Shown: in pieces, positions 7,322 to 54,131 of the stretch | Numbering within the stretch: position 1 is the stretch's first letter | Layout of the letters: every line of letters starts with the position of its first letter | Origin: Hydrurus foetidus | Lineage: Eukaryota | Direction: 5' to 3' | NCBI GenBank assembly: GCA_900617105.1 | Contig: UYFQ01000711.1 | Coordinates: 1-59,144 of the forward strand | Length of the DNA stretch: 59,144 nt | The notes under the pieces: model-generated | Database searches by the model: none | Told to the model about the DNA's origin: nothing | The model's input: the letters and a program-made list of their open reading frames with translations, nothing else | Made by a program: the position numbers and the translations under genes

Positions 7322-7326
7322 CCCAC

Positions 7327-7717
7327 TCTTGGAATAAGGCTGTCTTATGGATCCTGGATCCAGTCAAAGCACCTGGTTGATAGCAGTGATTCGTTTAGAA
7401 CACACTTTGCTTTCAGCTAGTCGACCAAGGTCGCTTCAACAGCTCACTCTAGTGTAGGTATAATGGCACACAGCCATATAGTCTCTTTTAATTAGAAGTG
7501 CTCATTGTGTCAAATCATAGCAGTTCATGGCTAGCTATACTAGCTACAGTTGGCTGTTCACTGTCATCATCAGTTGCAACTTTCAGTACAGTTTGAGTGA
7601 TGGTCTCGGGTCTGTGAGCGCTACCCTCGCTCCTCCACTTGAGCTTGAGTGATATTACCCAAAGGGAATTCCCCCAAAGGGATTGTCCCCATAGGGATAG
7701 CTATGCTATATCCAACA
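7327..7717 (-). repeat. Copia #1 3' LTR
   Basis: Direct repeat of 12833-13223; minus strand TGTTGGA...TTCCAAGA. Confidence 0.93.
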
Positions 7718-7882
7718 CACCCCTAATGTCACAAGCATTCAGGCGGCATATTCATATTTCTTCATAGAAATGTAATCATAAATCGTGTTTGTAACTATGG
7801 TAAGCTATAGTGATCATACAAGTTTTGTTGCTAATAAAAGTTTTAAAAAATAGCTCAACTGTAAGTCAATAATGTGAAGTAC

Positions 7883-12805: not shown

Positions 12806-12832
12806 TCTGAGCTAGCTAGCGGCTTCTAATTA

Positions 12833-13223
12833 TCTTGGAATAAGGCTGTCTTTTGGATCCTGGATCCAGTCAAAGCACCTGGTTGATAGCAGTGATTCGT
12901 TTAGAACACACTTTGCTTTCAGCTAGTCGACCAAGGTCGCTTCAACAGCTCACTCTAGTGTAGGTATAATGGCACACAGCCATATAGTCTCTTTTAATTA
13001 GAAGTGCTCATTGTGTCAAATCATAGCAGTTCATGGCTAGCTATAATAGCTACAGTTGGCTGTTCACTGTCATCATCAGTTGCAACTTTCAGTACAGTTT
13101 GAGTGATGGTCTCGGGTCTGTGAGCGCTACCCTCGCTCCTCCACTTGAGCTTGAGTGATATTACCCAAAGGGAATTCCCCCAAAGGGATTGTCCCCATAG
13201 GGATAGCAATGCTATATCCAACA
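12833..13223 (-). repeat. Copia #1 5' LTR
   Basis: Direct repeat of 7327-7717, ending 27 bp upstream of the ATG. Confidence 0.93.
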
Positions 13224-13401
13224 CACACTCTACTCTCCACTCACGATGTTGAAAATTTCACCTACGGTACTGAATGTACTGAACATAGTGCCAAGAAGTA
13301 AGAAGGGAGTGACAGATCACAGGGATTCCAAAGCTTATGGATGGAGGCATCTCATCGAATAGATAAACATCAAACTCAAAAGCTGCCTGAATCCTCGTGA
13401 A

Positions 13402-17717: not shown

Positions 17718-17759
17718 CTCTCTGACCCTGTTGAGTTTCTCTTTACTCTCCTCAGGTAG

Positions 17760-19490
17760 TCATACACGGGTCTTGCCGTTTTTGACCTTACCGAGAGCAT
17801 CCAATGAAGGCTGGCGGAACCTGTACGCGAGGGTAGCGGCAGTCGCCGACTTCTTGTCTTCAGTCCATCTGCTGATGTCATCGTGAGCGAATCGGCAACC
17901 GTCGCCGTACGTACAGGAGAATGTACGTGACGTTTTTGGATCTTGTGCCTTCAGTTGCCCCGCAAAATGTTCCCCACACACTGCCTTCGTCACTGCAATG
18001 CTTGCGGGAGAGGGTGCCGTTTTGGCCTTCGCCTCTGTCTTGGAAGCTCCAGCGGCTCCCTTGGTTTGATTACCAAGACGACTTCGATAGTCGAGCAGCT
18101 GGTACCTCGCCATGGCTTCATTCAGTTTTTCTTGTGTGTTGAGTGCACTCACAAAGTCCTTGAGCACCGCGCTCAAATAAGCAGCGCATGCAGTTGGACT
18201 GCTGACATCTCGGAGAGTCTTATTAGACGTGGTCGTAGCCATGCGCAATGTCCTAAAGAATTTTGACAACGCTACCTCCAATGAGTACAGGAGGAATCCG
18301 GACGGTGCGAGTTCCAGGGGCCGATGGAGTCCCTCCAACAGGTCGACAAAACGGTTGGTCGACTTGTGAAACGCAGACCCGTAGAAGATCACGAATACCA
18401 ATTCCATGTTCTTGATCGCCACCACTAGGGCTCTGTTCTGCTGTGTGCAAGGTGTGAGCTCGACTGGAATCTTGACCGTCCTCCCAGCAAATTTTTGCAG
18501 GTCCAAAGCATCCCCAAGGGGACCACCGAAATCACCGGTAAGCAGTTTCTTGAGCAACGGAATGTCGACTGAGAAGCTCAGACCATAGACCCTATCGAGC
18601 AGACCGCAGCATTTGAATCCGGGGTCTCGTTCGCTAATCTGTAGCGTAGACTGTTCGTTAATCACCCTAGCATATTCCTCAACCTGGAGTACACACTCAG
18701 TTCCCATGATGAATTGCCATCTCCTCTCATCGCACACTCGGAACACCACACCCAAGTTCTTCTCCCTCTCTGCTAAATCTGTCTTAACCCTCGTCGTATG
18801 TGGTCGACCCTCTAAATCTATCAACACCTTCACGTGCACCTTCTCACCTTGGCTGTGCACTCCCAAGTCGTCCTGCACACCGAGTCGGATCCGCTTCTCC
18901 ACGTGCTCGCTCTCAATGCTCTCATCGCGTGCTTCCTCCAGCCTCTTCCTTTCTGACGCAGACCAAGCGGCAGCGTGCTGCAGTGCAACGTTCTCTAGAT
19001 CTTCCATTGCCAACAGAAAGTATGGTGGTGTGGAAACGCTAATCCTGCTGCCTATCGCGAGAGCTCCATGCATCTGATGTCCGTGCCCAGCTAGCCCCAC
19101 AAGCATCGCGTACGTCGTTGTGCTAGTTGGCTTGCCGCGCAACTGCCACAATTGGACCATAGAATTGTCAAGAAATCCCAACGTCAAGTTTGTACCCTCT
19201 GGTAGTGCAGTAGCAGATAGCAGGAAAGTTGTCTTCTTATCCATTTCCTGCCATGGCGTCAGTGATGCGTTGAAGCTGAGGCGCAGTGTACCCTCCCCTT
19301 GATACGCATCATGACTGAAGCTAGAGATGATGTTCAATGACGCCGTTGCTGCCGCAGAAAGAATAGCGTTTTCAGGTAGACCATGATTGATCACATTTGT
19401 CGGTGGCCGATCATTCGCTAGACTCGTGAGAGCTGCGATAGCGCTAACTGTGCCGCCAATTCCAGGGTGAACAAGAGGAATAAGACTCAT
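17760..19490 (-). CDS. Gag-like ORF1 of the YR retroelement, 576 aa, C-terminal CCCH-type finger
   Basis: Lies directly after the A1 repeat and before RT; CGEHF...CTYGDGCRFAH. Confidence 0.8.
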   Translation of the reverse strand: MSLIPLVHPGIGGTVSAIAALTSLANDRPPTNVINHGLPENAILSAAATASLNIISSFSHDAYQGEGTLRLSFNASLTPWQEMDKKTTFLLSATALPEGTNLTLGFLDNSMVQLWQLRGKPTSTTTYAMLVGLAGHGHQMHGALAIGSRISVSTPPYFLLAMEDLENVALQHAAAWSASERKRLEEARDESIESEHVEKRIRLGVQDDLGVHSQGEKVHVKVLIDLEGRPHTTRVKTDLAEREKNLGVVFRVCDERRWQFIMGTECVLQVEEYARVINEQSTLQISERDPGFKCCGLLDRVYGLSFSVDIPLLKKLLTGDFGGPLGDALDLQKFAGRTVKIPVELTPCTQQNRALVVAIKNMELVFVIFYGSAFHKSTNRFVDLLEGLHRPLELAPSGFLLYSLEVALSKFFRTLRMATTTSNKTLRDVSSPTACAAYLSAVLKDFVSALNTQEKLNEAMARYQLLDYRSRLGNQTKGAAGASKTEAKAKTAPSPASIAVTKAVCGEHFAGQLKAQDPKTSRTFSCTYGDGCRFAHDDISRWTEDKKSATAATLAYRFRQPSLDALGKVKNGKTRV

Positions 19491-19499
19491 GGTTTGAAA

Positions 19500-19686
19500 A
19501 AAAATCTCTTTAACTTGAAAGATTCAGTAAGCAAACGTGTTAAAACTGTATGATATTCAATCTAAATACACTAAGTATATACACCGAAGACTTGCACCAC
19601 AAGTTGCAACAAACTGAAAGGTTTGCGACAAGCACCCAGTGGGATGCGTACAGAACCGTATAGTATGCGTGCGCACACAAAACTGA
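19500..19686 (-). repeat. Split direct repeat, 5' copy (A1-like)
   Basis: Matches 14385-14571 and ends about 10 bp before the ORF1 ATG. Confidence 0.9.
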
Positions 19687-23464: not shown

Positions 23465-23549
23465 AACCAATGGCTCCGGCCCTATATATACGCACGCGTT
23501 ACGCTACGCTAGGCGTTATATATACAGCACAATTTAAGTCTAGCGTAGC
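23465..23549 (+). promoter_or_regulatory. Putative YR promoter: CCAAT, two TATATATA boxes, 10-bp inverted repeat
   Basis: GCTACGCTAG (23503-23512) and CTAGCGTAGC (23540-23549) flank the second TATA box, just before ATG 23553. Confidence 0.45.
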
Positions 23550-23552
23550 ACG

Positions 23553-24902
23553 ATGGAACCGTGCACGAGCCAAGAAATGCTGTCGGATAGCCAGGCCGAG
23601 CTCCTGAAAAATGTGGCGGATTTCGGGTTTCTTTCGGACGACTGGTGGGACGATATGAACAACGATTTGGAAGAGAAGCCGAAGGTGGAGCCTCAGCCAA
23701 AAGATTTTGTACCTCTCGGTAGCTTAATCTGGGGAGAAGAGGGCCAAAATAGCCGGGAATGGAGCGATGCGATGGACTCTTTCGGATCTCGGAAGCTGTA
23801 TGAAGACCGCCTGAACGACTTTTTGGAAGCGGCAAGAGTGGATCATTCAGGATCTACGCTGGAAATGAAGCTGGTAAATTATTTTAACAATGCCCGAAGC
23901 CAAAAGAACGAAAAGGGCGAGGACAAATATCGTGCATCGTCTTTTAGGTCCTGGAATTCAGTGTTTTCCAAGTTTTGGAAGCACTGCAGAAACCAGGACC
24001 TGAAGCAGATTTTGCCCGCAATCGAGGATAAGATCGGAAAATGGGAAAAGCTGCAACAGGAAGCTAAACAGGCGAAGACGTTCACAAAAGATGAGTTAAT
24101 TACATTTTTTGAAATGCCTACAACTGTTGAAAATCTCGCTGATAAAGCGTACGCAGCCATTGCATTATCATTCGCAGCAAGAGGTGTCGAAGCGGCAGGC
24201 ATTAGCTGGGAAAATGTGTCCCGAACAATTGATTCTGTCACAAAAGAGTCCCAAATAACCATCTGGTACAAGCGCACCAAAACCACTGGCGTGCCGGAGA
24301 CCCTCGTTGCACTCATCACCGGAAGGCTTGAAACAAAGGCACTCGAAGAATACAAGTCGTGCTTCGCTACAGCTGAAAAGACAGGACGATACTTCCGGGA
24401 GTTAGTATGTACAGCCTCAGGAACGGCAATTACGGCCACAAAGCAAAACATCGGCCACAACACTACGGCCAAAACGGGGGTCCGGATTGCAAACCGGTTA
24501 GGCCTGGATTCTCCAGGATTGTACACCGCCCACACGTTCCGGCGTACAGCGGCCACGATTTGCGCCGAATCCGGCATGACGCTTCCGGAAATCAAATTGG
24601 TTACAGGTAAAAAATCAAAACAGTAAATTTGAATAAAACCGTTTTACTGTTATTTTAACGACCCTGAACCTATACCGTAATTAGGGCATAGGTCGGACAC
24701 TGTAGCACAAAGATACATTGACCAGTCAACCATAATGAAACAGAGAGCATCGGATGTCCTCTCACTGGGGGTCTCCAAGTTGACAGCGACGGCCAACAGC
24801 TCCGTAAAAGAAAGCCGGAATTTGACGGGGCTCGAAGACAGTCACCGGAGGAGAGGAGCAGATTACCACGCGATTATAACAAAGAAAATAGCCCTAGAAT
24901 AG
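23553..24902 (+). CDS. Tyrosine recombinase (Crypton-like), exons 23553-24606 and 24685-24902
   Basis: R (FAARGVE), K (KRTKT), HTFRRT. The phase-1 GT-AG intron restores VTGHRSDTVAQRY, supplying the H and the catalytic Y. Confidence 0.9.
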
Positions 24903-25140: not shown

Positions 25141-28100
25141 CGCGCGCCCCTCGTGCGTTTCAGGAGTACGAAAATCGGTTCCGCGGGACGAAAAAATGGC
25201 CTCGTTTACGGTCTCGGTACGAAATTACCAGTTCTACATCTACATCCACATCTGCTCTGTGTTCTGTCCTGTACTCTACCTCTCGCGCGACGCGAGGGTG
25301 TTTCAGGAGTACGAAAATCGGTTCCGCGGGACGAAAAAATGGCCTCGTTTACGGTCTCGGTACGAAATTACCAGTTCTACATCTACATCCACATCTGCTC
25401 TGTGTTCTGTCCTGTACTCTACCTCTCGCGCGACGCGAGGGTGTTTCAGGAGTACGAAAATCGGTTCCGCGGGAAGAAAAAATGGCCTCGTTTACGGTCT
25501 CGGTACGAAATTACCAGTTCTACATCTACATCCACATCTGCTCTGTGTTCTGTCCTGTACTCTACCTCCCGCGCGCCCCTCGTGCGTTTCAGGAGTACGA
25601 AAATCGGTTCCGCGGGACGAAAAAATGGCCTCGTTTACGGTCTCGGTACGAAATTACCAGTTCTACATCTACATCCACATCTGCTCTGTGTTCTGTCCTG
25701 TACTCTACCTCTCGCGCGACGCGAGGGTGTTTCAGGAGTACGAAAATCGGTTCCAAGGGACGAAAAAATGGCCTCGTTTACGGTCTCGGTACGAAATTAC
25801 CAGTTCTACATCTACATCCACATCTGCTCTGTGTTCTGTCCTGTACTCTACCTCTCGCGCGACGCGAGGGTGTTTCAGGAGTACGAAAATCGGTTCCGCG
25901 GGAAGAAAAAATGGCCTCGTTTACGGTCTCGGGTCTCGGTACGAAATTACCAGTTCTACATCTACATCCACATCTGCTCTGTGTTCTGTCCTGTACTCTA
26001 CCTCCCGCGCGACGCGAGGGTGTTTCAGGAGTACGAAAATCGGTTCCGCGGGACGAAAAAATGGCCTCGTTTACGGTCTCGGTACGAAATTACCAGTTCT
26101 ACATCTACATCCACATCTGCTCTGTGTTCTGTCCTGTACTCTACCTCTCGCGCGACGCGAGGGTGTTTCAGGAGTACGAAAATCGGTTCCGCGGGACGAA
26201 AAAATGGCCTCGTTTACGGTCTCGGTACGAAATTACCAGTTCTACATCTACATCCACATCTGCTCTGTGTTCTGTCCTGTACTCTACCTCCCGCGCGACG
26301 CGAGGGTGTTTCAGGAGTACGAAAATCGGTTCCGCGGGACGAAAAAATGGCCTCGTTTACGGTCTCGGTACGAAATTACCAGTTCTACATCTACATCCAC
26401 ATCTGCTCTGTGTTCTGTCCTGTACTCTACCTCTCGCGCGACGCGAGGGTGTTTCAGGAGTACGAAAATCGGTTCCAAGGGACGAAAAAATGGCCTCGTT
26501 TACGGTCTCGGTACGAAATTACCAGTTCTACATCTACATCCACATCTGCTCTGTGTTCTGTCCTGTACTCTACCTCTCGCGCGACGCGAGGGTGTTTCAG
26601 GAGTACGAAAATCGGTTCCGCGGGAAGAAAAAATGGCCTCGTTTACGGTCTCGGTACGAAATTACCAGTTCTACATCTACATCCACATCTGCTCTGTGTT
26701 CTGTCCTGTACTCTACCTCCCGCGCGACGCGAGGGTGTTTCAGGAGTACGAAAATCGGTTCCGCGGGACGAAAAAATGGCCTCGTTTACGGTCTCGGTAC
26801 GAAATTACCAGTTCTACATCTACATCCACATCTGCTCTACGTCGTTCTGGCCTCCGGTCTCGGTACGAAATTACCAGTTCTACATCTACATCGCGTTCTG
26901 TCGCGACGCGAGGGTGTTTCAGGAGTACGAAAATCGGTTCCGCGGGACGAAAAAATGGCCTCGTTTACGGTCTCGGTACGAAATTACCAGTTCTACATCT
27001 ACATCCACATCTGCTCTGTGTTCTGTCCTGTACTCTACCTCTCGCGCGACGCGAGGGTGTTTCAGGAGTACGAAAATCGGTTCCGCGGGACGAAAAAATG
27101 GCCTCGTTTACGGTCTCGGTACGAAATTACCAGTTCTACATCTACATCCACATCTGCTCTGTGTTCTGTCCTGTACTCTACCTCTCGCGCGACGCGAGGG
27201 TGTTTCAGGAGTACGAAAATCGGTTCCGCGGGACGAAAAAATGGCCTCGTTTACGGTCTCGGTACGAAATTACCAGTTCTACATCTACATCCACATCTGC
27301 TCTGTGTTCTGTCCTGTACTCTACCTCTCGCGCGACGCGAGGGTGTTTCAGGAGTACGAAAATCGGTTCCGCGGGACGAAAAAATGGCCTCGTTTACGGT
27401 CTCGGTACGAAATTACCAGTTCTACATCTACATCCACATCTGCTCTGTGTTCTGTCCTGTACTCTACCTCTCGCGCGACGCGAGGGTGTTTCAGGAGTAC
27501 GAAAATCGGTTCCGCGGGACGAAAAAATGGCCTCGTTTACGGTCTCGGTACGAAATTACCAGTTCTACATCTACATCCACATCTGCTCTGTGTTCTGTCC
27601 TGTACTCTACCTCTCGCGCGACGCGAGGGTGTTTCAGGAGTACGAAAATCGGTTCCGCGGGAAGAAAAAATGGCCTCGTTTACGGTCTCGGTACGAAATT
27701 ACCAGTTCTACATCTACATCCACATCTGCTCTGTGTTCTGTCCTGTACTCTACCTCTCAAAATTTCGCAAGGAATTTCGTATACAAGCCTCTTGTACTTT
27801 GGATCTGAAAAGGAGCGGCTCGCACCGGTTCCGATCCGACTTCGATCCAGAGAATCCAATCCGCAAGTGCACAAGTTCGCGCGACGCGAGGGTGTTTCAG
27901 GAGTACGAAAATCGGTTCCGCGGGACGAAAAAATGGCCTCGTTTACGGTCTCGGTACGAAATTACCAGTTCTACATCTACATCCACATCTGCTCTGTGTT
28001 CTGTCCTGTACTCTACCTCTCGCGCGACGCGAGGGTGTTTCAGGAGTACGAAAATCGGTTCCGCGGGACGAAAAAATGGCCTCGTTTACGGTCTCGGTAC

Positions 28101-29164
28101 GAAATTACCAGTTCTACATCTACATCCACATCTGCTCTGTGTTCTGTCCTGTACTCTACCTCTCGCGCGACGCGAGGGTGTTTCAGGAGTACGAAAATCG
28201 GTTCCGCGGGAAGAAAAAATGGCCTCGTTTACGGTCTCGGTACGAAATTACCAGTTCTACATCTACATCCACATCTGCTCTGTGTTCTGTCCTGTACTCT
28301 ACCTCCCGCGCGACGCGAGGGTGTTTCAGGAGTACGAAAATCGGTTCCGCAGGACGAAAAAATGGCCTCGTTTACGGTCTCGGTACGAAATTACCAGTTC
28401 TACATCTACATCCACATCTGCTCTGTGTTCTGTCCTGTACTCTACCTCTCGCGCGACGCGAGGGTGTTTCAGGAGTACGAAAATCGGTTCCGCGGGACGA
28501 AAAAATGGCCTCGTTTACGGTCTCGGTACGAAATTACCAGTTCTACATCTACATCCACATCTGCTCTGTGTTCTGTCCTGTACTCTACCTCTCGCGCGAC
28601 GCGAGGGTGTTTCAGGAGTACGAAAATCGGTTCCGCGGGACGAAAAAATGGCCTCGTTTACGGTCTCGGTACGAAATTACCAGTTCTACATCTACATCCA
28701 CATCTGCTCTGTGTTCTGTCCTGTACTCTACCTCTCGCGCGACGCGAGGGTGTTTCAGGAGTACGAAAATCGGTTCCGCGGACGAAAAAATGGCCTCGTT
28801 TACGGTCTCGGTACGAAATTACCAGTTCTACATCTACATCCACATCTGCTCTGTGTTCTGTCCTGTACTCTACCTCTCGCGCGACGCGAGGGTGTTTCAG
28901 GAGTACGAAAATCGGTTCCGCGGGACGAAAAAATGGCCTCGTTTACGGTCTCGGTACGAAATTACCAGTTCTACATCTACATCCACATCTGCTCTGTGTT
29001 CTGTCCTGTACTCTACCTCTCGCGCGACGCGAGGGTGTTTCAGGAGTACGAAAATCGGTTCCGCGGGAAGAAAAAATGGCCTCGTTTACGGTCTCGGTAC
29101 GAAATTACCAGTTCTACATCTACATCCACATCTGCTCTGTGTTCTGTCCTGTACTCTACCTCTC
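25141..29164 (+). repeat. Tandem array of 27 near-identical 143-bp units
   Basis: CAGGAGTACGAAAATCGG recurs every 143 bp (25161, 25304, 25447 ... 29041). Irregularities: a 7-bp duplication near 25930, an aberrant unit near 26840-26900, a 120-bp insert at 27759-27878 and one 142-bp unit. Confidence 0.97.
27759..27878 (+). repeat. 120-bp copy of the array's right flank (29165-29284) embedded in the array
   Basis: AAAATTTCGCAAGG...GTGCAC(A/T)AGTTC is present at both places with one mismatch. Confidence 0.95.
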
Positions 29165-38898: not shown

Positions 38899-40118
38899 AT
38901 GGTGGATCGACTATCAGAATTTAAGAAGGGTGCGGTCGCAGTTAACCCCGACGATGTTGCAATTGACATGGATCTAGCAGATGCCGGTACAGGTAAGAAA
39001 CCTATGATTTTCAACGGATTACTGTCGTCTTCCTAAAATCAGCTTTTGCTCCTATGAAATTTTCACCGCACCACGAGCTCTCAATGCCGACGGAGCTTTT
39101 ATGCAGGAATTCTTTGGTCACGTCGAGTACGTGAAGCGTAATATTATTGTTATCAGAGAAGCGACCACGCGAGTAGGGGAAATAAACCAGCAGGTACACG
39201 AACTCTTGACACGATTAACCCCACATGTCAAACATACTCGCAAAATACAGGCAAGAGAACTCACATATAGTATGCATACATAAATAAATCAGGTTGTTCT
39301 GGCCACAACGAACGAACATGAGCAGGATGAGAGCAAAGAACTCACAGTCCTAATTACGAACACCAACAAAAAAGCAGCTGTCGCGAAGCAGTTGCTGAAA
39401 AAATTAAGGGAGGATACTGAGGCATTAAAATTGAAACCTGGTCCAAAGCAATCAGAGATTAGAATACGTGAAAATCTTGCGAGCACCCTCACTAGAAAAT
39501 TTGTTGATGTTATGAAAGAGTATCAAAACGCCCAGACAAAATATAAAACTGATATTAAGAAAAAAGTGAAGAGGCAAGTTCAGATTATTAAGCCTGATGC
39601 CACTGCAGAGGAGATAGATGCTGTTCTGAAAAGTGGGGGAGGCTCCGGTGAGATCATGAAAGGCGCGATATTGAAGGTTAGCGAATTACCACTTTCAGCT
39701 CCTCGGATCTCTAGTATGACTAATGATGTCTTTCTTTTCGATCATGAAATCACAGGGTGACGCGGCAGATTCGATAAGAAACGCTTTCGAGAATGTCGCT
39801 TCAAAATATCAGGACGTGTTAGTATTGGAGGCGTCAGTAGCAGAGCTGCACCAGATGTTTCTCGATTTTGCGCTGCTGACTGAGGAACAAGGGGAGCTGT
39901 TGGACCAGATCGAATATCAGGTCAAGTCAGCCTCCGACTACATCGAGGAGGGCAACGTGGACATGGTGCAGGCTATAGCGATCCAGAAGAACATTCGTAA
40001 GAAGCAGTGCTGCATCATCATCACCTGTCTCGTCATCATCGGGATCATAATAGCTATCGTCCTCGCGACTCAGTCCGCTCAAGGGAAACTCGCCGTTGCT
40101 TCCATCAGTAAACGATGA
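38899..40118 (+). CDS. Plasma-membrane-type syntaxin (Qa-SNARE), 4 exons (about 38899-38992, 39078-39193, 39293-39676, 39756-40118)
   Basis: N-peptide MVDRLSEF, Habc segment (FMQEFF, IRIREN), SNARE motif LEASVAELHQMFLDFALLTEEQGELLDQIE, C-terminal TM helix. Confidence 0.95.
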
Positions 40119-40480: not shown

Positions 40481-42448
40481 CTAATAACTATTGAAGAGTT
40501 CTATGTCCATGGCAGCTGAGCATGTCTCCATCCACTCCTCTAGAAGAATCCCTGAGTAACGCTTGATACCGTGCTGCGGGACACTGCTCACGACTGAGGG
40601 GTCAGTGTCTGGTTTGCTGTCTTTACTTGCAAGCAGATCGGATAAAAAATGCTTCCACATTCCGCCATATACACCTCTCCTTGCAGTCGAGTTGCAAGGA
40701 GAGGTGTGCACACCGTAAGAGCCTGTTGATGATGTTGGTGTGCGGCACACACACAGCAGGGACTCCGAGGAGTCTAGGAGGTCACTAGAGAGCAAGGAAG
40801 CGAACAGCGCCTCGAGCCGACGATGTGATTTAGCAGTAACAGAAGCGTCTGTGGATTGGAATGTGTAGTCTGTATGCGTATCAACGTGGCTGCTGCTGTT
40901 GCAGTTATGATAGGCATCGTAAACGTGGCGAGCCATAGCCTCCTCAGGCAGTGCTGCGCTAGTTGCGGTCGATGATCTCTTGCAGTGTCGCTCATCACTG
41001 TCCTCTTGATTCTGTGGTCGGGTTAAACCATCTATGGATCGCAATTCAGAACTTGAAGAAGACATTGCTGATGTTCTATTAGGTTGGACTAGAGCATTGT
41101 GCTCATCAAGCGCTGTTGCAAACTCCTGCTGAGTCATTATGTACGATAAGTCATACGAGAAAATGTCCCCTTCATCCTGCTCCCCTGATGGATATTCACA
41201 AATATGAACAGCTTCTACTACAGCTGGTAGCCATACTGCGCCACGCCCATGCAGAGCCCACACCATACTGCCTTTGACTATCTTCCGAGCTGAATTGGCA
41301 ACTCGCTGGAGCCGATCACACCATCTATTGTCCGAGTTAGCAGTAGAGAGTCGGCAGTGATCTGCTGTGCGGATCAACCTTCTCACAACATGGAATTCTC
41401 TTGATGCAGACTCATGTGCAATGGATAGCCAATCAGCCAAGGTCAAGAAAGTGTCTGAAGGATAGTCGACAGCATTATTTGGAGATTTCGTCATAAAGAG
41501 ATGCCATTTTTTTCGTTTGACCCAGCTCCCAAAAACAGTGTACCGCAACATCATTCTAACATCTGGCAAAGCAGAAATTAGAATTCCAAGGTGGTCGTGA
41601 TGCGGAATGCACAAAACTTGAGCAGTTGAGGAAGAGTGCAAATTGGATGCTGACATTTGACAAAGCTGAAGGAATGACTTCTTCAACGTGATAGCCTGGT
41701 CCCACTTAAACTCGGGATGTCCATTATACCCATCGACAAATCTGCCCAGAACGTGTTCATTAGAGCGTATATCCCTATTATCGAAGAATCTGACTCTTTC
41801 TGTATCTTTGCTGCTGCTGAGCCCGCTGTTGCTCGTGGGGTATATTCGATTCGATGCCAGATTCACACAATTTTCAGATTCAAGGGTTTCTGCCGAGATC
41901 GGCTGTGACAATTGCTCTATTTGATGCCGGAGATGCTGTTGTCCCGAAGCATAATTAGGCATGTGTATGAAATCATCAGTGCTTTTCCGAAGCACAGGAC
42001 TGACATTTCTACTGTGCACCCTTGGATGCATTGACACGATACCTCCTGTCCCATCTGAGGCAAACGATGGTTTCACCTTTACCCGTGTACTCCATTTGTA
42101 GTCCATTATATGTTGAGATGTATCTGTTGAGAATACAGTCTTCAGATAACGTCGCCGCTCCTGCACCTGTTCCAGGGCGCGAATAAAGCTATCAGCATAT
42201 GCATTTTCTTTTACTTCTTGATCCCATCGAAGATGTTTCTCAACAATTCTATTCTGCGTTTCAAAATCTGTGCTGATTTGCTCTTCAATAGCCATTTTCC
42301 CTCTCTCTATGTCTCGATTGTCGATCTCTACATCATACCCCCAGAACCGATCTCCATAACTTCTCTGTTCGTTTTCCATGTCTTCCATGGTGATGTTTCT
42401 TGCGAAAGCATCGAAAATTGCTGAAGAAGCTGAGCTGCTGCAACTCAT
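40481..42448 (-). CDS. Hypothetical protein, 655 aa
   Basis: Long single ORF convergent with the syntaxin; coiled-coil-like N-terminus and a weak Tudor-like segment KGSMVWALHGRGAVWLPAVVEAV. Confidence 0.7.
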   Translation of the reverse strand: MSCSSSASSAIFDAFARNITMEDMENEQRSYGDRFWGYDVEIDNRDIERGKMAIEEQISTDFETQNRIVEKHLRWDQEVKENAYADSFIRALEQVQERRRYLKTVFSTDTSQHIMDYKWSTRVKVKPSFASDGTGGIVSMHPRVHSRNVSPVLRKSTDDFIHMPNYASGQQHLRHQIEQLSQPISAETLESENCVNLASNRIYPTSNSGLSSSKDTERVRFFDNRDIRSNEHVLGRFVDGYNGHPEFKWDQAITLKKSFLQLCQMSASNLHSSSTAQVLCIPHHDHLGILISALPDVRMMLRYTVFGSWVKRKKWHLFMTKSPNNAVDYPSDTFLTLADWLSIAHESASREFHVVRRLIRTADHCRLSTANSDNRWCDRLQRVANSARKIVKGSMVWALHGRGAVWLPAVVEAVHICEYPSGEQDEGDIFSYDLSYIMTQQEFATALDEHNALVQPNRTSAMSSSSSELRSIDGLTRPQNQEDSDERHCKRSSTATSAALPEEAMARHVYDAYHNCNSSSHVDTHTDYTFQSTDASVTAKSHRRLEALFASLLSSDLLDSSESLLCVCRTPTSSTGSYGVHTSPCNSTARRGVYGGMWKHFLSDLLASKDSKPDTDPSVVSSVPQHGIKRYSGILLEEWMETCSAAMDIELFNSY

Positions 42449-42988
42449 AACTCAATAAATTGGCACTTAGTCTCGTGAGTCGTGAGTTGAGTTGAGAAGT
42501 CGTCATGAAGCGAAGTAACTGAAAGCTGAAAAAGGGGTTGGGGTTGGGGGTTGGGAAAAGTTTCATGGCTCGTTGGTGTAGTACCGTATAGATACAACTC
42601 GGGCAGCTGACGCGGACACACGGACCACGGACCTCATTTGTGCTTCAACTGACTTGAACTGGACATAACTAGGGACTGACTATTTGCCAGCGCACCACAT
42701 GATCAGGTTTACGAAGGATACTCATGAGAAACTGGATCAAGAGATAGCGGTGGTAATCACAGTACGATCGAGAGGTCCCGCCTAGTAGTAGGACACTGAT
42801 CGCATTTGGATAAGGGCTCATGAACAATCGTGTTCTCTGCTAATGTAAGGTTTTGAGCGATGCGACTTCCGAAAGAGAGGCGGTGTGACATTTGAAAAGT
42901 TGTTTTTGATCAATACAATTGAATAATTTGAGTAAGAATGCGTCACGAAATAAATGGAAATATGGAGGATATTTGCTGAAAACTAGCT

Positions 42989-43024: not shown

Positions 43025-43727
43025 GCTGTATCGCGCAAGCCATTACACTGGTAAACAGCGAGTAATAGATACCAAACATATATGAGATAGTCTACTAAAT
43101 TTCTATACAGGAAAAAATAAAATAAAATAAAATAAAAGATGTAACAAATAGAAAATGAACCATCAAGGCCGAATGAGACATTGATATCATAAAGAAGGAT
43201 CGATCCCGTATCGAACAATTTAAAAATAAAAGTCATGGAAAACTATTACTGAAGTCTAGTCGTTTTAAGCGAACATGGAGTTGCTTCGGAAAAGAATAGT
43301 ATGTGATGTGTAGTGCATTTTAGCTGTCGAAAATATGCCCTTGTTTTCCTTGTACTCGCCTGTCGCTAAATTAAAATTCCAACTCTATCCGCTCCATAAA
43401 CTTCTACCGCTTGTCGAACTCATCATCGTACTTAGACAGAATGGTATAGACTACAGGGACTTCTCATGGTCGAACATGATCAGACAGACTTCATCTAAGC
43501 TGCGACTGCTAGAGTACATTGTTATGCTGCGCATACTAAGTAAGCGCTATTACTGTGATGTGAGGTGATATCTATCGCATCCATCGAAATGAATAAAAAG
43601 AGACGATAACTGCCACTTATCTCCGGCAGCACATTTTCTGAATAGCAGATAAGATCTAATCATTTCATAACAGATCTGACGGTGCCTACTTCATCAAGTA
43701 GACCAGATCGACAGAAAAATCCTGGAT

Positions 43728-46700
43728 CTACATCTGGAATTTGATGGCTGTATGACGCATCACTTTTTTAATTTTTGGATTTGACTCACATCCGTGTTCT
43801 GTCAAGAAATCAAGTAGAGCGTTGAGATGTTCTTCCCTAAAAGGTTTCAGGGTCACGCAGTCCGCCCCTGCCTTCAGAAATGCATCCACGTCATCGTCTA
43901 GCGCGTTACCAGTGAGTCCTATGATAAGCCCTGTGTAGCCCAGAGATCGTATAATCGATGTTGCTTCAATGCCGCTCATAACGGGCATAGTGTGATCCAT
44001 GAAAATGACGTCATGCACTGCAGGCCGCCTCGCCCCTGCGTCCGTTGAAGGAACCTTGTACAGATCCACAGCTGCTTGGCCGTCATACGCGATGTCGCTG
44101 TCGATGCCCTTACGTCTCAGCAACATCTTCAACATCTTGCAGTTAGATGCGGTATCATCCACCAGTAAAAATCGCAGCCTCCTGTCTTTGAAGCTCCCTG
44201 CGCAGGACATCCCAATCACGGGCCTGCACGCTTCAGTAACACTGCTCGCCCCTGTCACCGCCCTTGATGGCATCTTCACCAACTGGCCGTATACTAGCTG
44301 TCCGGTTACTGACCGTATTTGAACTATCTCCCCCATCTGAATCATTTTAATGTCTTCATCCTCCATCAGTGCTTCATCATGTAGACATGTCATACTAACA
44401 CTTGATTGAAAGCTGGAGCCAATTGCATTGGACTCATTCGCAGATCGGCCTACAAAGCTGTTTTCTTTGCTTTTCAGTCTCCCTATAGTAGTATCTGCAT
44501 CACCTGTGTTCCTGGGCCCCCTCGGATGGAGGGCTGATTTGCTGCTAGATGATCGGAGCACGTTGGGTATGTTGAACGCAACGCTCTTTATCGAACTAGC
44601 GAAGGATTCAAGTGCTGGGAACCGACCGCTAAGATAGGCTTTCTCAGTGGTTTGAAAAGGAATGGAAAACCCAAAAGTGCTCCCCTTCCCCGCCTCGGAC
44701 GAGAATATTATTTTGCCCCCATGTAGGGTCACTACTCTTTTAGCGATGACCAGTCCCAGACCTGATCCCCTCCCATCGCTCTCTTTGTCGTGGGGTCGAA
44801 TCTGGGCAAAGGCGTGGAAAAGTTTTCTCTGTACCTCCGCGTCCACTCCAATACCGTTATCAACAACGAGAATCTTAATTGTCACAGGGCGTTTCGGTGA
44901 TTTGGATCGCATTTTTGATATTTTCTCTTTCATGCTCGTTATGCTGAATTTCCTCATTTCATTAGAGTAGGAATGTCGCTGCCCGTGTGGGGAAACTCTC
45001 GATCTCTTCGCACCTTTGTAGGATCGTGATATGTCTCTCTTTCTGCTGACTGACGTCACAAATGACTCCGACACTGATTGCATGAATGAAGTCTTCTGGG
45101 AGTTGATCACACTCAGCACTATGGTGGAGTCTGGTGCGGAGAACTTTATCGCGTTTTTGAGAAAATTGATAACGACATGTTTCAGCTTTGCTTGATCTCC
45201 AATGAGATGTGTCTTGTTCGATGCAAATATTGCGCCGGAATCATCTTTAATGATATGTATCGATTTTTGATCTGCTTTGCTTTTGATTTTGTGCAGAACA
45301 CTGTCAATGAGAGCATCCAATTTAAACGGTTTCAAGTGTAGCGCCATATCCCCGTCCTCAATTTTGCTCATACTCAGGACGTCATTCAGTGTGTCATTCA
45401 TGAACCCTGCTGCATTATCCATCATGCTAACGACATCTTGCTGGGAAACAATAATATCATCCTTCAATATCGATATTCCCATTGTGATCGTATTTAAAGG
45501 GACTCTCACTTCATGGAAAACATACCGTAAGAATTCTTTCCTACTGTCGCTGACCTTTTTCTCGGATGCAGATTGAAGTATTTTTGATTCCAGAGATAGG
45601 ATTGATATATACGCCATTTTCAGTAGTAGACTGGCTGCCATATTTGCAGCTATTGCATCGTCTGTCTCGAGATGGTTGAGAAAATCTGAGAACATTCATT
45701 TGCAGTGATGGAAGGGTAACACATGTTAAGGAAAAATTATGCATCATTTGAAATAGAATAATTCGAAGTGAATCATATAGCATAGTGTTGTATTTTATTG
45801 TATCACAGCGCATTTATTAGATTGCGTTGTATTTCAGTGAATAGCATATCACGTTATCGCATAACACATTTCATGTCGGTGCACAACATTACGTAATGCA
45901 GAAGATAGAAAGAAGCGGATGAGACACAATAGCCATCGACCAGTCTGCAGTATATGTCACGTAAACAATACTATGCACTCCTTAAATGATTCGGCATGAT
46001 ATAATATGAGAAGTAGTAGTAGTATGAGGGACCTAGGAACTAAAATACTAAAATTTCTAGAAATGCACAACAATGTCCCAAACCTAATGACAAATCGTTC
46101 TGCTAGTAGATGTCATCGAGTGCAACATGACGCGTTAGCATACACATAAATTTCATGCTTACCTAGGGTGTATATCACAGGAAAGAAAGGAAGCACCACG
46201 AAAAGGAGCCACACAAGTTTTCTCTTCAAAGTAAGTCGATCAAGATACCAGCGTTGTGAAAGTTCAACGGACATTCTCAATTTTCTGACAGACCTCTCAG
46301 CTTTAAAGGCCAATAAGATGTTCGCTATATTGGCAAGGAACGAGAAATTGAGAAAAAGATCAGGAAGAGGTTTTATCGATCTTAAAATAGTAAGATCAAA
46401 TTCAAATATGCTAATGCATGATGTAATGTATGATAGGGGTAGTACACAGCTGGCTCTATGACGATGGACTGTGCATACCATACATTTACTAAAATTAATA
46501 GCAGATTTCTGACTGGTCTACTTTCTATTTCCCAGGCTATTTACTTCAAAAGATGGAACAGATAATAGCATTCGTCGCGAAAAAAGTAGTAAAAGGAGAA
46601 TGTACCTGTGGTGCTGAGCAAGGCTGCAGAGAATAATGTGATACCAGTGATGAAGTCTTCCGTGAAGTTATTTGCAAATGCTAGGGCAATGCTTGTAAAC

Positions 46701-47546
46701 ATTAAAGCGATAATACCGCGGTCTTCGGTAGATAGAGCTGGCTTATCCTCAATTGCGATCGCCACATATCCTGTGTGGGTTGCGTTTGTTATGGATATGC
46801 GCTCGAAAAGTAGGTAATTCATATGTAGTTCTGACCTAGAAGTGGCGACGCCACAATCCACTCCGCCCACTGTGTGCTTGGACTGTACACGCCCAAGGAA
46901 TCCCTACAAAACTTCGATCCTGCATAAAATTAAAAAAATTTTCATTGTTATGCGACTTACAAAAGTCACTAAGCGTTGTCATTTAAATGATAGCGCATTT
47001 TTTTTCAAGGTCACCTACGGCGCTTATCTGTAGCCCAGTTGCCGCCCCCCCTATCAAACTTATCGTTGCTGCGCTTGCATATACGCCTCGCAGATGATAC
47101 AGCTCCCTATCAGCCCAGCATCTTATTGAGAACCCATGTGCAATGTTGCACAGCGCTGCTAGGGTGTAACATGCAAGCACAGCTACTGCGACTTTCTCCG
47201 TCCATGGACTGTAAGGCATGTCTATATCACATGCCTCTGTAATCCCACTAAGCAGAAAAGATTGCATCATAATAAAGATTGCTATTGACAAAGGCATCAC
47301 ATAATGCCATTGTCTGCTTATCAGTGTCCCCTTAATATCCAGCGGAATGTCTGATCCTGTGGCCTTTGTACTCCTCGTTTCCAAAAACGGATTCCTCTCA
47401 TTTTGGGCAACTTCGACTACATCTCCCCTATGGCCGTCAAAACTGGCACATATCTGACTTCTGACCTCATCAATTTCCGCATCTGGAAAGTTTCGATTCG
47501 GTAACTGACCATGATCGGACGTGGTATCAAGAATCACGTCAGCCAT
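43728..47546 (-). CDS. Hybrid histidine kinase with N-terminal rhodopsin-like multi-TM domain; exons 47546-47015, 46919-46836, 46770-46606, 46324-46163, 45685-43728; about 966 aa
   Basis: H-box FLRYVFHEVRVPLN, N-box NFLKNAIKFS, DNGIG, GSGLGL; receiver LVDD...FMDHTMP...LTG...KPF. Four phase-1 GT-AG introns join a TM domain with QWAEWIVASPLL and SLLLKMAY. Confidence 0.88.
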
Positions 47547-47763
47547 GGCTGGCTGTGCTTGGCATGGAATCAAAGAGGCGCTGATAGAGACATCACAAAG
47601 CGCGATCCTCGTGAAGTGTCCCGATCTTGAATGCTCGCGTCCAGTTGATATCAGCACGTTGGCTCACTTGGACTTCGTCCTGTAGATTGTAGATTGATCT
47701 TAAGCTAACTGTTCGAGTTCTGAGTTGAAGGTTGCTGTGATTTAGCGTTTAGTACGTAGCTTC

Positions 47764-48129
47764 TGTCGTACGGTTGGCGTTCAGACTCACTGAATGTCAC
47801 ACTAGATCTTCCTGCGTACGCTCTCCTTCTGCAACTTCTGCACGATAGCTAGCAACTGACTCGGCTCGAAGAGAAAGTTCTGCTATTTGTGAGGTTAAAG
47901 GTAATTAACAATGCAACGTGTCTTACATTGTTCATGGAGACAGCCGACAAGATCGCGCTGTCCCACACAGTCAAACATGGTGTACTTTCATTGCTTTCGA
48001 TGTTCCTGGGTTAAAAAGAACTTGGACCGTGTGGAGTAGCGACCCCCACACAGCACACGACGGTGAAACGTCATCAAGCGTACATACGTAATGACTTATA
48101 CGGTTACTTAACACACAGTTATTCCGACA
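47764..48129 (-). repeat. Copia #2 3' LTR
   Basis: Direct repeat of 53766-54131. Confidence 0.96.
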
Positions 48130-48746
48130 CACCCCTATGGCGTGAGTCGTCGGGTAGGGGCTATGTGGATGATTAAAACGCAAAGATAAAATTCAAAATT
48201 GCTCCTTTGACTAGGAGTCATGTATCACAGCATGATGTTTTAGGGTAGGGAGTTAAGGTAATGGTGAGGTTGACCTTTAGGGTGAAGGTAGATACGTTAG
48301 TACACACAGGGTAATATTAGTATCGTACGTTCTGGCTGAAACCGTACGAGCAGTAGAGTTAAACAATGCGGGAGTGATTTTATAGTCAAACAATAGTATG
48401 CTATAAAAATCCTCTCAGCTTTCTGATTGATTAAAGTGATCGAATCTGAATTTCGATCCAGGGTCCAGTCCAGAGTCCTCGCTCCATATAAATCCGATTC
48501 AGGGTCCGGGGTCCTTGGGTCAGGATCCTCTCGCAGTGGGATGTGGGCACGTCTTGTCCGTGTTGTCCGTACGTACATCTCCTGATAGTGCGCGCAGCAG
48601 TCGGGTAGTAGGTAAAGAAGGATGGGCAGCAGTAATGTTGGAAGGGCAGCAGAAATGACGGGGGGTAGCAGATCGGACGGGAAATGGCAGTAGGTATGAC
48701 AGGGGCAACAGGGGTGGTCGGTTCGATGGTGTGAATCGGCCGGGTC

Positions 48747-51700
48747 TCAATTTCTCTTCTTGACTCCTCGTTGAGTCGTTGTAGGTTTAGATGGGTAGGG
48801 GAAGTTGGGGTTGAAGTTGGCTTTTGTTCGTGAGTAAGTCACGGTGCTGTTGGCGCTATCCTCGGTCTTGCAGCCTTCTGCGTAGGTGACGGATGGGGTG
48901 GTGGTGTTTAATAGCTCCTTCCTGAGCTTACGGAATAGTTCCCCTTGTAGTGGCTTGGTTAGGATATCAGCTGTCATGTCTTGTGTAGGTAGGTATTGAA
49001 TGTCGATGTCTCCGGTGCTCAGTCTGTCGTGTAAGAAGAAGTACCGTATGTCGATATGGCGCGTACGTTCGCTGTTCGAACGTCCGTTCCGAATCAGCTG
49101 TATGGTAGACTGGTTGTCTTGATGGATTAGTGCAGGTGGTTGGTGGTGTCCTTGACAGTGTAGGAAGTTTCGTGTCCACAGTACTTGGTTGGCGGAGTCG
49201 CTAAGTGCAACGAGCTCGGCTTCCGTGCTTGATTTGGTCATCAAGCGCTGTGTGCCGCTCTTGGCGTACATCGCTCCCTTTCCCAGGGTAATTACGCAAC
49301 CTGTGTGGCTTTTCATATCGGGATGTATGGCGAAGGATGCATCGACATATGCAATCACATGTATAGGTTCATGTGCTTCAAATGTTACACCCAAGTTCTG
49401 GGTATCCCGTATGTACTGTACCGTACGGATCAACTTATTATAGTCGTCCCTTTGGGGCTTAGTCACTCTCTTGGTCAGGAACGCTACGGCTGTCAGAATA
49501 TCTGGCCTCGTCCTCTTGCTCAGATAGAGTAGCTTCGCTGTAATAGAATGGAAACGCTCACGCAAGTTGTCGGGTAAGGGTGAGTCACATTCGTTAGGTA
49601 CAGTGAATAGGTTAGATTGTGCAGGTGTGTTAGCCTTGCCAGGCATATCCTTACACCCCTCAATGAGGTCTTGCACAAATCCTTCCATAGTCATCTTGAC
49701 GCTGCCTGCCTTAGTAAAGTCAAATGTCATACCTATATAGTTTAGAACTTTGCCGCGGTGTTTAGTTAGACCGGGGTATATAGTTTCAATTTGCTGAATA
49801 ACATCGTCAACGCGAGATTCATTTGAAGCAGTGATAATCATATCATCAACATGAATTACGAGTGAGGTTTGTGTGTTATCTGATTCAGTTCTGTTAAATA
49901 CGCAGATGTCATATTCATTAGCAGTATAATTGAGTTTAATCAAATCATTGGATAGATTATCATACCATAGCTTAGCAGATTCAACGCATCCATATAACGC
50001 TTTTTTAAGTTTAACTATACAAGTTCCATTGTTGTTAATGTATTTATTGTATGTGGCATCAATATCAATTAGTGCCGCAGTCAGTTGTTTGTTCAGACGC
50101 ATGTATACAACATGGTCTCCGGTCAGCGGCATATCACTATTCAGGAATGCACCGGGGAAGTCAACAGTGGCAACAGCACGGTTCTGTCTAGCAGCAATTG
50201 CAGTCAGTATGAATACACTAGATGTGCTAGCAGTAGGTGATGCGCCGTTATTATAAACGTCTCTATCTTGTAAGTGCCCACCGGCGACTAGTCTAGATTT
50301 AAGTTTTTCGAACATGCCATCAGCAGTATACTTTTCTTTCAAGAACATGCTACTAGGTATAATGGTGCGTTTTTGTTGTGGGGTGAGGGATTCATAAGTT
50401 ACACCTTCCCAAACATTCTTATCACACATTTGTTTCAATTCAGATGTGATGGAATCAACAGCTATCACCCCTAACTTATTAATACCTTCATTAACAGTCA
50501 TTTTGTACAGGTGAGTGTGGTTGTAGAACAGATTACCAACATATTTCTTATCCCATTTACCAAGTTGGTGATTTCTACCACTTCTACGTAACACGGGTGA
50601 GTTTACAACAGGTGGGTCATATGCGGTTTCAATTATAGTGGCAGGTGGTGTGAATACTTCAGTGTGTACGGTTACATCAGCAAAGTCGTCTTCATCATCA
50701 CTTATACCAAATATGTCATCTATCAGTGCTTGATCATATTTCGGTGTGGGCACATGTGTATCATCATGTGTGTCATCATAATATAGTTGGTCATTGTCAT
50801 ATGTATTGTCATTCACATATAGTGTGTCATCTACGTACTCATCTAATGTGGGTGGGTGATTTTCGTCATTCATGTCAAGTTGTGTTTCATAGACAGCTTC
50901 TTCGACACTATATTTATTGTCTATGGTACCGTCAGTTTCTACTGCGTAGGCAGGTTGTTCTGTGGTATCATATTCGATATCACCAATGTATTCAGAATCA
51001 TCTTCGACATCGTCATCATCATCAAACACAATGTGACTACTATTCTCGAATACAGGCTGTTTAACATTGGCAGTTTTTCTTTTTGAAGCTAATACATTCA
51101 GGTGTAATATCACTTCGTCAGGCATGGGTAGTACAGTCGCTTTAGTACGTTTCACAATACGTTCGTTAGATAGCAACATATAGTACCATGAACCTTCTAG
51201 ATTGCCGGAGCTCATAAGTGCTATGGCCCCGGCTGTTCTTGGTTTGGTAGAATTATCAATGACATCATTATGCACTTGAACATAATCACCAAAGCCATGT
51301 TTAATCTCCTTGTCTACATCTAACTTTCTTCCGGTTAATTTCTCTCTCGGGCTGATGTGACTAAGTGAGTTACGTGTGGGAGCTAATACAATTCGGCTGA
51401 CTGCATATTTAACTAGCCACACTTCCAGTTTCTCATTTAGGGAGAATGGTAGAGAATTGATTACTGATCTAACCCTCTCCTTTATATGCCGTATCTTACG
51501 TTCAACTACGGCTACGGCTTCTCCGGCTCCGGTAACGTCTAATACTATACCTCTTAGACCGACTTTGTTGTGAAACCATTCAGTGTTAATTGCACCCTCG
51601 CCATCTACTCGGATCATCTTAACTCTGAATCTATACTTTACCATGCTTGCTAGTGAAGTCTTCATGCTGTTCCATATGCTTTTGTGTTCTCTGTTCGCTA

Positions 51701-52630
51701 ACTTATTAACGTATAGAAACTCAATAGGCTGAACAACTGATACTAGGTATGGTACTTGATTAACGAACATTATATCTACATACATAATCTGTTCTGTCTT
51801 GTACTCTATACCTATCAATGGTAACTTCTCTTCTAACTTTGCCTGATGACTAGTGGTCTTCCCCTTAAGGGATCCCACATCCGGTCCCCATATATCCATG
51901 GCTCTGTGTACGTCTCGCGCAGTCACTTTGCTATTAGTCAAATTCCCTTGGGATATCAACTTAATAGTCTGTGCTGCGCTAGCGTAACCTAATCTACGCT
52001 GGTAGTCTCTAGCTAACGACGCGTCTCTGACTTCTCTCACTGTATACTTCTTCTTGTTTTGTTCTACTGTCGTAACTAACATTGGCATGCATTCTGTTAC
52101 CATAGTGTCAAGATTGCATTGGTATATATTCATAGTCTCATCTCGTGAGAATCTATAAAAATATTGTCCACTGACATCTTGCACTATGTACAATCATGGT
52201 CATGTAAGTACTTAACGTCAGTACAGTCACGTACAGCATTACCGAAAGATAGTATATTACCAGCACAGTCAGGGCTATAATACACATTGCCGAACGCCGA
52301 CACCCCACATTTCTTAATTATTAACGGTTTTCCTTTCGGATTCACCCCGCTAACAATCATGGGTGTGGGTGCGTGTTCGACACTGTACAGCAGGGATGAG
52401 TCGTTGAATACCGACTCACCAGCACATGTATCAAGCAGTATGTGTCTACTTCTAATCATGTTATATATATTACATGTATTAACACTAAAAACAATATGAT
52501 CACATGTTTCAATTCCGCTAGTGGAATCAGCCAAACATGGAGGATCGGTGCGTGTATGTATAAGTGTGTGCGGGAATGTAAGTGTGGGTGAGTGTACAGG
52601 TGAGGAATAATGTATCTCGGTTAGTTTACC
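48747..52630 (-). CDS. pol: Copia #2 pol (PR-IN-RT-RNase H), one frame break near 52190
   Basis: LLDTCAGES; IN YVDIMF/VDGE/VERKIR; RT KSRLVAGG, LKKALYG, HVDD; RNase H YVDASFA, SSTEAE, DNQS, ADILTKPL. Confidence 0.92.
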
Positions 52631-53765: not shown

Positions 53766-54131
53766 TGTCGTACGGTTGGCGTTCAGACTCACTGAATGTC
53801 ACACTAGATCTTCCTGCGTACGCTCTCCTTCTGCAACTTCTGCACGATAGCTAGCAACTGACTCGGCTCGAAGAGAAAGTTCTGCTATTTGTGAGGTTAA
53901 AGGTAATTAACAATGCAACGTGTCTTACATTGTTCATGGAGACAGCCGACAAGATCGCGCTGTCCCACACAGTCAAACATGGTGTACTTTCATTGCTTTC
54001 GATGTTCCTGGGTTAAAAAGAACTTGGACCGTGTGGAGTAGCGACCCCCACACAGCACACGACGGTGAAACGTCATCAAGCGTACATACGTAATGACTTA
54101 TACGGTTACTTAACACACAGTTATTCCGACA
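53766..54131 (-). repeat. Copia #2 5' LTR
   Basis: Direct repeat of 47764-48129. Confidence 0.96.

Follow-up and report, generated by a model that had tools for sequence, protein, structure and literature searches.

A transcribed rhodopsin-like hybrid histidine kinase without a cyclase domain in Hydrurus foetidus

Histidine-kinase rhodopsins and the Hydrurus locus

The rhodopsin histidine kinases characterised so far come from green algae, and flavin receptors are held responsible for most light sensing in stramenopile algae (PMC2781859 and PMC12558739, both in excerpt). The closest described systems are the histidine-kinase rhodopsins (HKRs), i.e., Cop5/HKR1 and Cop6/Cr2c-Cyclop1 of Chlamydomonas, Ot-HKR of Ostreococcus, and the cryptophyte HisK-RR. 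In Cr2c-Cyclop1, light inhibits the phosphorelay and the K298A substitution abolishes light control (excerpt of PMC6284317). Here, we analyzed a gene of Hydrurus foetidus whose product has the same domain order. It lies on the minus strand of a transposon-rich eukaryotic stretch of 59,144 nucleotides (GenBank assembly GCA_900617105.1, contig UYFQ01000711.1, positions 1 to 59,144; hereafter “the window”), and a preliminary description had read it as a hidden rhodopsin-like sensor fused to a histidine kinase and a receiver. Sequence comparisons and structural models of relatives indicate that this gene probably encodes a retinal-binding, light-regulated hybrid histidine kinase. Its named relatives are chrysophytes and synurophytes.

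The window protein carries opsin, HisKA, HATPase, and receiver in one chain, the architecture that defines HKRs, and the proposed fusion without a cyclase was upheld by Pfam matches, the spliced frame, and an RNA contig. It shares with HKRs a lysine in the last helix and a relaxed counterion set. Unlike 2c-Cyclop and like several other HKRs, it lacks a cyclase: a Pfam scan of the gene yielded no cyclase family, and only 26 amino acids follow the receiver before a stop codon, beyond which RNA reads continue as untranslated sequence, so that there is no cyclase or other output domain. Identity with a 2c-Cyclop was thus ruled out, given the missing C-terminal guanylyl cyclase domain. Whereas the absence of a cyclase reported in the preliminary description was confirmed, its oddity was not: HisK-RR rhodopsins of a cryptophyte and of prasinophytes are likewise listed outside the cyclase row (excerpt of PMC7693036). 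The differences lie elsewhere. Lysine and phospho-accepting histidine are separated by 35 residues, compared to 54 in Cr2c-Cyclop1 (K298 to H352; excerpt of PMC6284317), the residue four positions past this histidine is V as opposed to T in Cr2c-Cyclop1, and helix C has Q where HKRs have R. In addition, green algal modular rhodopsins mostly keep D212 (excerpt of PMC7693036), while the family of the window protein combines E at position 3.45 with S, G, or N at 7.46. Finally, its named relatives are ochrophytes, as opposed to the green algal and cryptophyte HKRs compared here.

Gene structure and transcription

Four introns of 95, 65, 281, and 477 nt, each GT..AG and each in phase 1, separate five exons, and the open frame after splicing encodes 966 amino acids. 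The features of the gene are as follows:

47547..47664, minus strand: 5′ untranslated region, approximate; an X1 contig reaches 47664, and contigs cannot fix the start
47015..47546, minus strand: exon 1, coding part, with start codon, ~80-residue N-terminal tail, TM0 (47303-47238), Cys106, and helices A and B (splice joint in RNA; family profile match)
46920..47014, minus strand: intron 1, 95 nt, GT..AG, phase 1 (RNA joints)
46836..46919, minus strand: exon 2, with Cys182 in the B-C loop and, in helix C, Q194, W195, E197 (3.45, predicted counterion), W198, and P203 (alignments; family profile)
46771..46835, minus strand: intron 2, 65 nt, GT..AG, phase 1 (RNA joints)
46606..46770, minus strand: exon 3, from the end of helix C through helix D to most of helix E, including the conserved K215 and D222 (alignment; family profile)
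46325..46605, minus strand: intron 3, 281 nt, GT..AG, phase 1 (RNA joints)
46163..46324, minus strand: exon 4, last part of helix E, a basic loop between E and F, and helix F with P306, F308, P309, and Y312 (alignments)
45686..46162, minus strand: intron 4, 477 nt, GT..AG, phase 1 (joined in RNA contigs X1, X2, and X4)
43728..45685, minus strand: exon 5, the last, with helix G, HisKA, HATPase_c, and receiver (splice joint; Pfam)
45588..45662, minus strand: helix G with S333 (7.46) and K337, the predicted Schiff-base lysine; predicted to run unbroken into the kinase helix (alignments; models of relatives)
45351..45542, minus strand: HisKA/DHp with phospho-accepting H372 (45515-45513), 35 residues past K337 (Pfam PF00512, E 3.4e-8)
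44652..45203, minus strand: HATPase_c, interrupted by a basic insert of ~70 amino acids; boxes N, G1 (D590), F, and G2 are present (Pfam PF02518, E 4.8e-21, two stretches)
43809..44174, minus strand: receiver with D824/D825, phospho-acceptor D878 (43997-43995), T906, and K928 (PF00072, Response_reg, E 4e-16)
43300..43727, minus strand: 3′ untranslated region, at least this long; stranded read depth goes on to the edge of the examined stretch

We evaluated this structure against RNA from seven of the ten listed runs, among which X9 and X10 represent one sample (~6% of reads). Stranded raw reads of X9 and X10 cross the joints of introns 1–3, with 4–18 reads per joint, and all four introns were joined in contigs of X1, X2, and X4, which come from three studies; X3 showed the intron 3 joint only. 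Overall, GT-AG introns were seen in the RNA of four of the five RNA-bearing studies examined. A single X1 contig, covering 47664 to 44487, crosses all four joints, including that of intron 4, which links the helix F exon to the lysine exon. The near-identical X5, for which the kind of run is not on record, covers the stretch without splicing, and the window DNA may derive from it. A dip in raw-read depth around ~45450-46230 was set aside and not counted as a finding. Expression was detected in four metatranscriptome studies and one RNA-seq sample. Among the strain variants listed for X1, 29 codons were synonymous and 21 changed, and none affected K337, E197, H372, or D878.

The exons were thus confirmed by RNA, for intron 4 from contigs, and independent support came from homology: when the window was searched in six frames, a profile built from relatives only matched precisely these five exons, colinear and in order, with no other notable match and no second copy of the membrane domain in the window. 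The first methionine is common to P0045, a relative with 85% identity. Hydropathy showed eight peaks of 1.1–2.0 (window of 19) upstream of HisKA. The four phase-1 introns and eight hydrophobic segments of the preliminary description were therefore upheld, and its remark that the open reading frame track misses the helix C exon proved correct, as this exon lies in a 36-codon frame (46822-46929), below the 40-residue cut-off. The RNA joints and the match of the relatives’ profile to the same five exons ruled out an artefact of by-eye splicing, and spliceosomal introns together with retroelements ruled out a bacterial origin of the window.

A large family with a predicted type-1 rhodopsin fold

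Exon 1 initially gave a single relative, P0001, and a full HMMER scan of 1.84 billion representatives then revealed a family of 160 clusters at 50% identity (E up to 1e-3; 150 listed). With a profile made from 45 membrane-domain relatives, the spliced window protein scored 284.8 bits, while 200 shuffles scored ≤6.3. Relatives were aligned (151 sequences, 89 of them covering helices F and G) after exclusion of P0002–P0006, which are near-copies of P0001. Among the 77 relatives scanned with Pfam, i.e., the longer ones, picked for length from the 150 listed, 29 matched Bac_rhodopsin at E ≤ 0.1, 20 reached the cut-off, and most also bore HisKA or HATPase. The description of the sensor as “hidden” thus held in part: the window exons themselves gave no Bac_rhodopsin match, while the protein is one of a large family with recognizable members. 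The single-exon Pfam searches, and that on P0001, returned no Bac_rhodopsin match; for single exons this null is weak because exons 2–4 comprise only 28–54 amino acids, too short to judge. Searching P0001 alone against PDB sequences gave 0 matches, word-indexed protein searches for long relatives (a weak method by its own note) gave 1, 0, and 1, and a metagenome contig scan gave 380 pattern matches with none confirmed. Atlas similarities to Bac_rhodopsin clusters (0.92 for P0001 and 0.83–0.86 for P0018) served as leads only.

Taxon names were available for 3 of the 21 clusters looked up: Epipyxis sp., a chrysophyte, and Mallomonas marina and Mallomonas annulata, both synurophytes. No named member fell within the subclade of the window protein in an unrooted FastTree of 89 membrane domains, which held family members only and left out P0030, P0072, P0119, and P0141. 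Judged from this family and from the freshwater origin of the metatranscriptomes, the host is likely a chrysophyte-type alga living in fresh water. Two members, P0053 (Mallomonas marina by record) and P0058, carry an RGS domain N-terminal to the rhodopsin-type domain (PF00615, E 3e-10 and 2e-9), which might connect a retinal sensor with G-protein signalling and recalls the RGS-LOV helmchromes of stramenopiles; we found no description of such an RGS-rhodopsin fusion in the open literature.

Fold homology was assessed with a membrane-domain profile, the full-length alignment being swamped by kinases when compared to the PDB. At E ≤ 10, this profile gave 55 PDB matches, of which 45, including the top 37, were microbial rhodopsins (best 8anq, E 2e-8). 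The QWxEW motif of the family aligned on RYADW in helix C of solved rhodopsins, and the family lysine fell on the helix G lysine in all three printed alignments (8anq, 7zou, and 8r0p). The earlier by-eye alignments of helix C, helix F (VLPFFPVIYTL), and helix G (AASLLLKMAY) hold in this comparison.

Structure prediction on two relatives likewise gave eight-helix type-1 rhodopsin folds. The AlphaFold model of P0044 (pLDDT 89.7) shows eight long helices, with helix 281-355 unbroken from G into DHp, and all its listed Foldseek matches were type-1 rhodopsins. In VIA-align, its best match was 7cj3 (Z 24.3, rmsd 3.0, 252 residues, TM0 covered), followed by 7d7q (Z 24.1) and 3am6 (Z 23.6), the latter tied within 1. 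The model of P0018, which has the 35-residue lysine-to-histidine spacing of the window protein, showed the same layout and matches. Judged from the end points of the VIA-align ranges only, NpSRII entries (offset 91) put K205 on K296 of P0044, and bacteriorhodopsin entries are one residue off. The extra helix TM0 noted earlier is supported by hydropathy of the window protein, by the models of relatives, and by alignment of the P0044 model to TM0 of 7cj3 and 7d7q. Taken together, the profile matches and family score uphold type-1 rhodopsin homology: by sequence, and by the modelled fold of relatives, the membrane domain is a highly diverged type-1 rhodopsin homologue.

These matches also place the protein relative to other rhodopsin systems. 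The best structural match, the Salpingoeca rosetta rhodopsin phosphodiesterase (7CJ3 and 7D7Q), has TM0 and a helix that continues from TM7, as in the P0044 model; it differs in being only 11% identical, in its phosphodiesterase enzyme, and in its linker, a folded helical bundle in the published model. The near-tied 3AM6 is the Acetabularia rhodopsin. Sensory rhodopsin II with HtrII (Z ~22 to the P0044 model) also feeds light into a two-component pathway, but with a separate transducer and kinase, seven helices, and in prokaryotes. Heliorhodopsins have E at 3.45 and S at 7.46, as does the window protein (E197 and S333), but they keep the 3.42 arginine and have an extracellular C-terminus. Since the C-terminal kinase is ATP-dependent and implies a cytosolic C-terminus, this would argue against membership. 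No heliorhodopsin was named among the listed PDB, Foldseek, and VIA-align matches, which does not by itself exclude kinship.

Residues of the putative retinal pocket

The helix G lysine (position 7.50) is kept in 82 of the 89 relatives covering helices F and G, and in the window protein it is K337 (codon 45620-45618, AAA), retained as previously claimed and aligned on the lysines of 8anq, 7zou, and 8r0p. Among the seven exceptions, two have N, and five (P0001, P0030, P0072, P0119, and P0141) look, in our reading, like intron read-through or misalignment. On helix C, E197 (3.45) is kept in 123/137 relatives, W198 in 131/138, and P203 in 133/137. Position 333 (7.46) is more variable: of 89 relatives, 40 have S, 23 have G, 15 have N, and 5 have D. 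W198, P203, F308, P309, and Y312 all occupy positions that line the retinal pocket of solved rhodopsins. In bacteriorhodopsin numbering, we take D115 to correspond to M229, W182 to L305, and Y185, P186, and W189 to F308, P309, and Y312. Cysteines 106 and 182 occur together in 90 of 105 rows, and for this reason a disulfide between them is likely, which would link the TM0-A loop and the B-C hairpin on the extracellular side.

The replacements listed in the preliminary description, i.e., R82 to Q, D85 to E, and D212 to S, were borne out as Q194 (46872-46870), E197 (46863-46861), and S333 (45632-45630) by codons and family profile. Its view that this counterion set is unusual fared less well: the residues are as described, but the set is not unusual among HKRs, as Cop6 is active without D85, D96, and D212 (excerpt of PMC7693036), and heliorhodopsins likewise combine E at 3.45 and S at 7.46 (excerpt of PMC13739731). 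More distinctive, it appears, is that helix C has lost its arginine and helix F its tryptophan; apart from pump-like channelrhodopsins, every characterised cluster conserves the arginine at 3.42 (excerpt of PMC13739731). Judged on sequence, the loss of arginine and of tryptophan, the cysteine pair, and the short linker set this family apart.

Proposed signal path

In the proposed mechanism, retinal would be bound to K337 as a Schiff base. E197 would serve as its sole counterion, with S333 at the place of the second one and Q194 at that of the arginine. On photoisomerisation, helices F and G would move, and the predicted unbroken G-to-DHp helix would pass this shift over 35 residues to H372 in a kinase dimer. 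Lysine-to-histidine spacings in the family are mostly 35–42 and cluster at 41 (32/59) and 35 (8/59), as expected for a register-sensitive helix. Phosphate would then move from H372 to D878 and, since the protein has no output domain, on to a separate Hpt or response regulator. All phospho-His and phospho-Asp motifs are intact, i.e., H372, the N box, D590, G2, D878, T906, and K928. By analogy with Cr2c-Cyclop1, whose relay is inhibited by light, inhibition is our first guess and would be more likely than activation. The same comparison suggests weak phosphatase activity, as V376 sits four residues past the histidine, where Cr2c-Cyclop1 has its proposed phosphatase threonine.

Evidence against a light sensor and alternative explanations

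Several observations weigh against a retinal-binding, light-regulated kinase. The intron 4 joint is absent from the raw reads of X9 and X10, because depth there is near zero (~0–2), leaving contig support only. The structural models are those of relatives, with membrane-domain identities to the window protein of 34% (P0044) and 39% (P0018). In the pocket, position 194 (3.42) is Q in 97/137 relatives and in the window protein, and R in only 3/137; the helix F tryptophan position (L305) is F, L, or M across the family; and in the sister sequences P0056 and P0100, N replaces the helix G lysine, making them natural lysine-less members. The window protein itself is off the family consensus at several pocket-side positions: it has A236 where 101/129 relatives have G, S202 where 94/137 have V, A255 where 78/128 have S, N329 where F, Y, or L prevails, and Y340 where 79/95 have F. 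Further departures occur at 346 and 348. Among the listed X1 variants in the N-terminal and membrane part, 10 codons are synonymous and 8 changed. Finally, only 41 of the 63 relatives covering the H box retain its histidine; the other 22 keep the rhodopsin part (Q in 6, K in 5, others; some may be misaligned), so that part of the family, i.e., members without this histidine, may be pseudokinases.

These observations can be read in three other ways. The one that survives best, although we regard it as unlikely, is that the opsin fold was kept and repurposed, with a pocket that senses a non-light cue (a different aldehyde or lipid, the state of the membrane, pH, or redox via the cysteine pair) and a lysine kept for a salt bridge with E197. 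The family-wide loss of the helix C arginine and helix F tryptophan, the conserved extra helix F proline (P306, 89/118), the asparagine of P0056 and P0100, and the many divergent copies, as in chemoreceptor families, would all fit. However, retinal-free opsins usually lose the helix G lysine. Here it is kept in 82 of 89 relatives at 20–40% identity, along with W198, P203, F308, P309, and Y312.

Less probable still is a regulatory partner, which would bind retinal and photocycle without light controlling its own kinase, and which would heterodimerise with other members, some of them pseudokinases, in the manner of NeoR with fungal rhodopsin cyclases. The 22 of 63 relatives that lack the H-box histidine yet retain the rhodopsin part, some of which may be misaligned, are consistent with such a division of labour. 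There are also precedents, as RGC1/2 work only as heterodimers with NeoR (excerpt of PMC7655827) and full-length Cop5 showed no activity in cyclase assays (excerpt of PMC6284317). Nevertheless, the window copy has every kinase and receiver motif intact, and its helix G is predicted to run unbroken to DHp. We consider it very improbable that the family senses light and the window copy is a constitutive kinase with a decaying pocket: its off-consensus residues (202, 236, 255, 329, 340, 346, and 348), the 8 changed versus 10 silent codons, and the transposon-rich surroundings are countered by a frame that stays open over four introns, by expression in four metatranscriptome studies and one RNA-seq sample, and by the retention of K, E, W, P, and both cysteines.

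Wider implications

No description or characterisation of a chrysophyte or diatom rhodopsin histidine kinase was found in the open literature, subscription reviews lying outside the search, and the searched terms returned no mention in the main text of a chrysophyte genomics preprint (bioRxiv 10.64898/2026.10.27.762293). A meeting report mentions 380-nm HKRs from Chlamydomonas or Ochromonas (PMC10865835), where Ochromonas may reflect unpublished work or a slip for Ostreococcus. The window family might also correspond to an uncharacterised cluster 5 without the 7.46 counterion (excerpt of PMC13739731). As a broader and more tentative possibility, ochrophytes, including golden algae, may harbour an independently evolved and highly expanded rhodopsin-histidine-kinase family. 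Its pocket chemistry would be new, with neither the helix C arginine nor the helix F tryptophan, a single glutamate as counterion, and an extracellular lid tied down by a disulfide, and a short, rigid helix would lead to the kinase. Together with its pseudokinase and RGS-fused members, this family would amount to an unrecognised retinal light-signalling system in a lineage whose light sensing is ascribed to flavins. A transcribed and intact member of a 160-cluster family offers a direct test of retinal-based two-component signalling in stramenopile algae. A pigment without the helix C arginine and helix F tryptophan, if true, would widen the rules of retinal photochemistry, and a light-switched kinase that is compact, lacks a cyclase, and has a short helical linker would be an attractive structural target and a possible optogenetic part.

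Surroundings of the gene

Pfam matches in the window include retroelement, DDE, and MULE domains. Immediately upstream of the gene, opposite-strand reads start at 47766-47900, i.e., a divergent transcript, beside a repeat (47888-48130) with further copies at 6713-7322 and 53890-54131; these reads may therefore stem from other copies. Downstream, a 656-codon open frame (40481-42451, minus strand) has no Pfam match below E 0.1, and a Syntaxin exon (39284-39760, plus strand; PF00804, E 1e-18) is among the few ordinary host genes seen in the window. Copia-type retrotransposon frames (RVT_2) lie at 48747-52193 and 7883-12811, both on the minus strand, and the latter is flanked by 99% identical direct repeats (7327-7720 and 12833-13226), marking it as a recent insertion. 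A tyrosine recombinase frame (23544-24626, plus strand) and a weak reverse transcriptase frame (15972-19523, minus strand) possibly belong to DIRS-type elements. Between 25068 and 29164, a ~4-kb tandem array of a 143-bp unit, 99% homogeneous in 27877-29164, has open frames on both strands and an inverted copy at its left edge, and a DUF7309 Pfam match in the window is probably due to this repeat.

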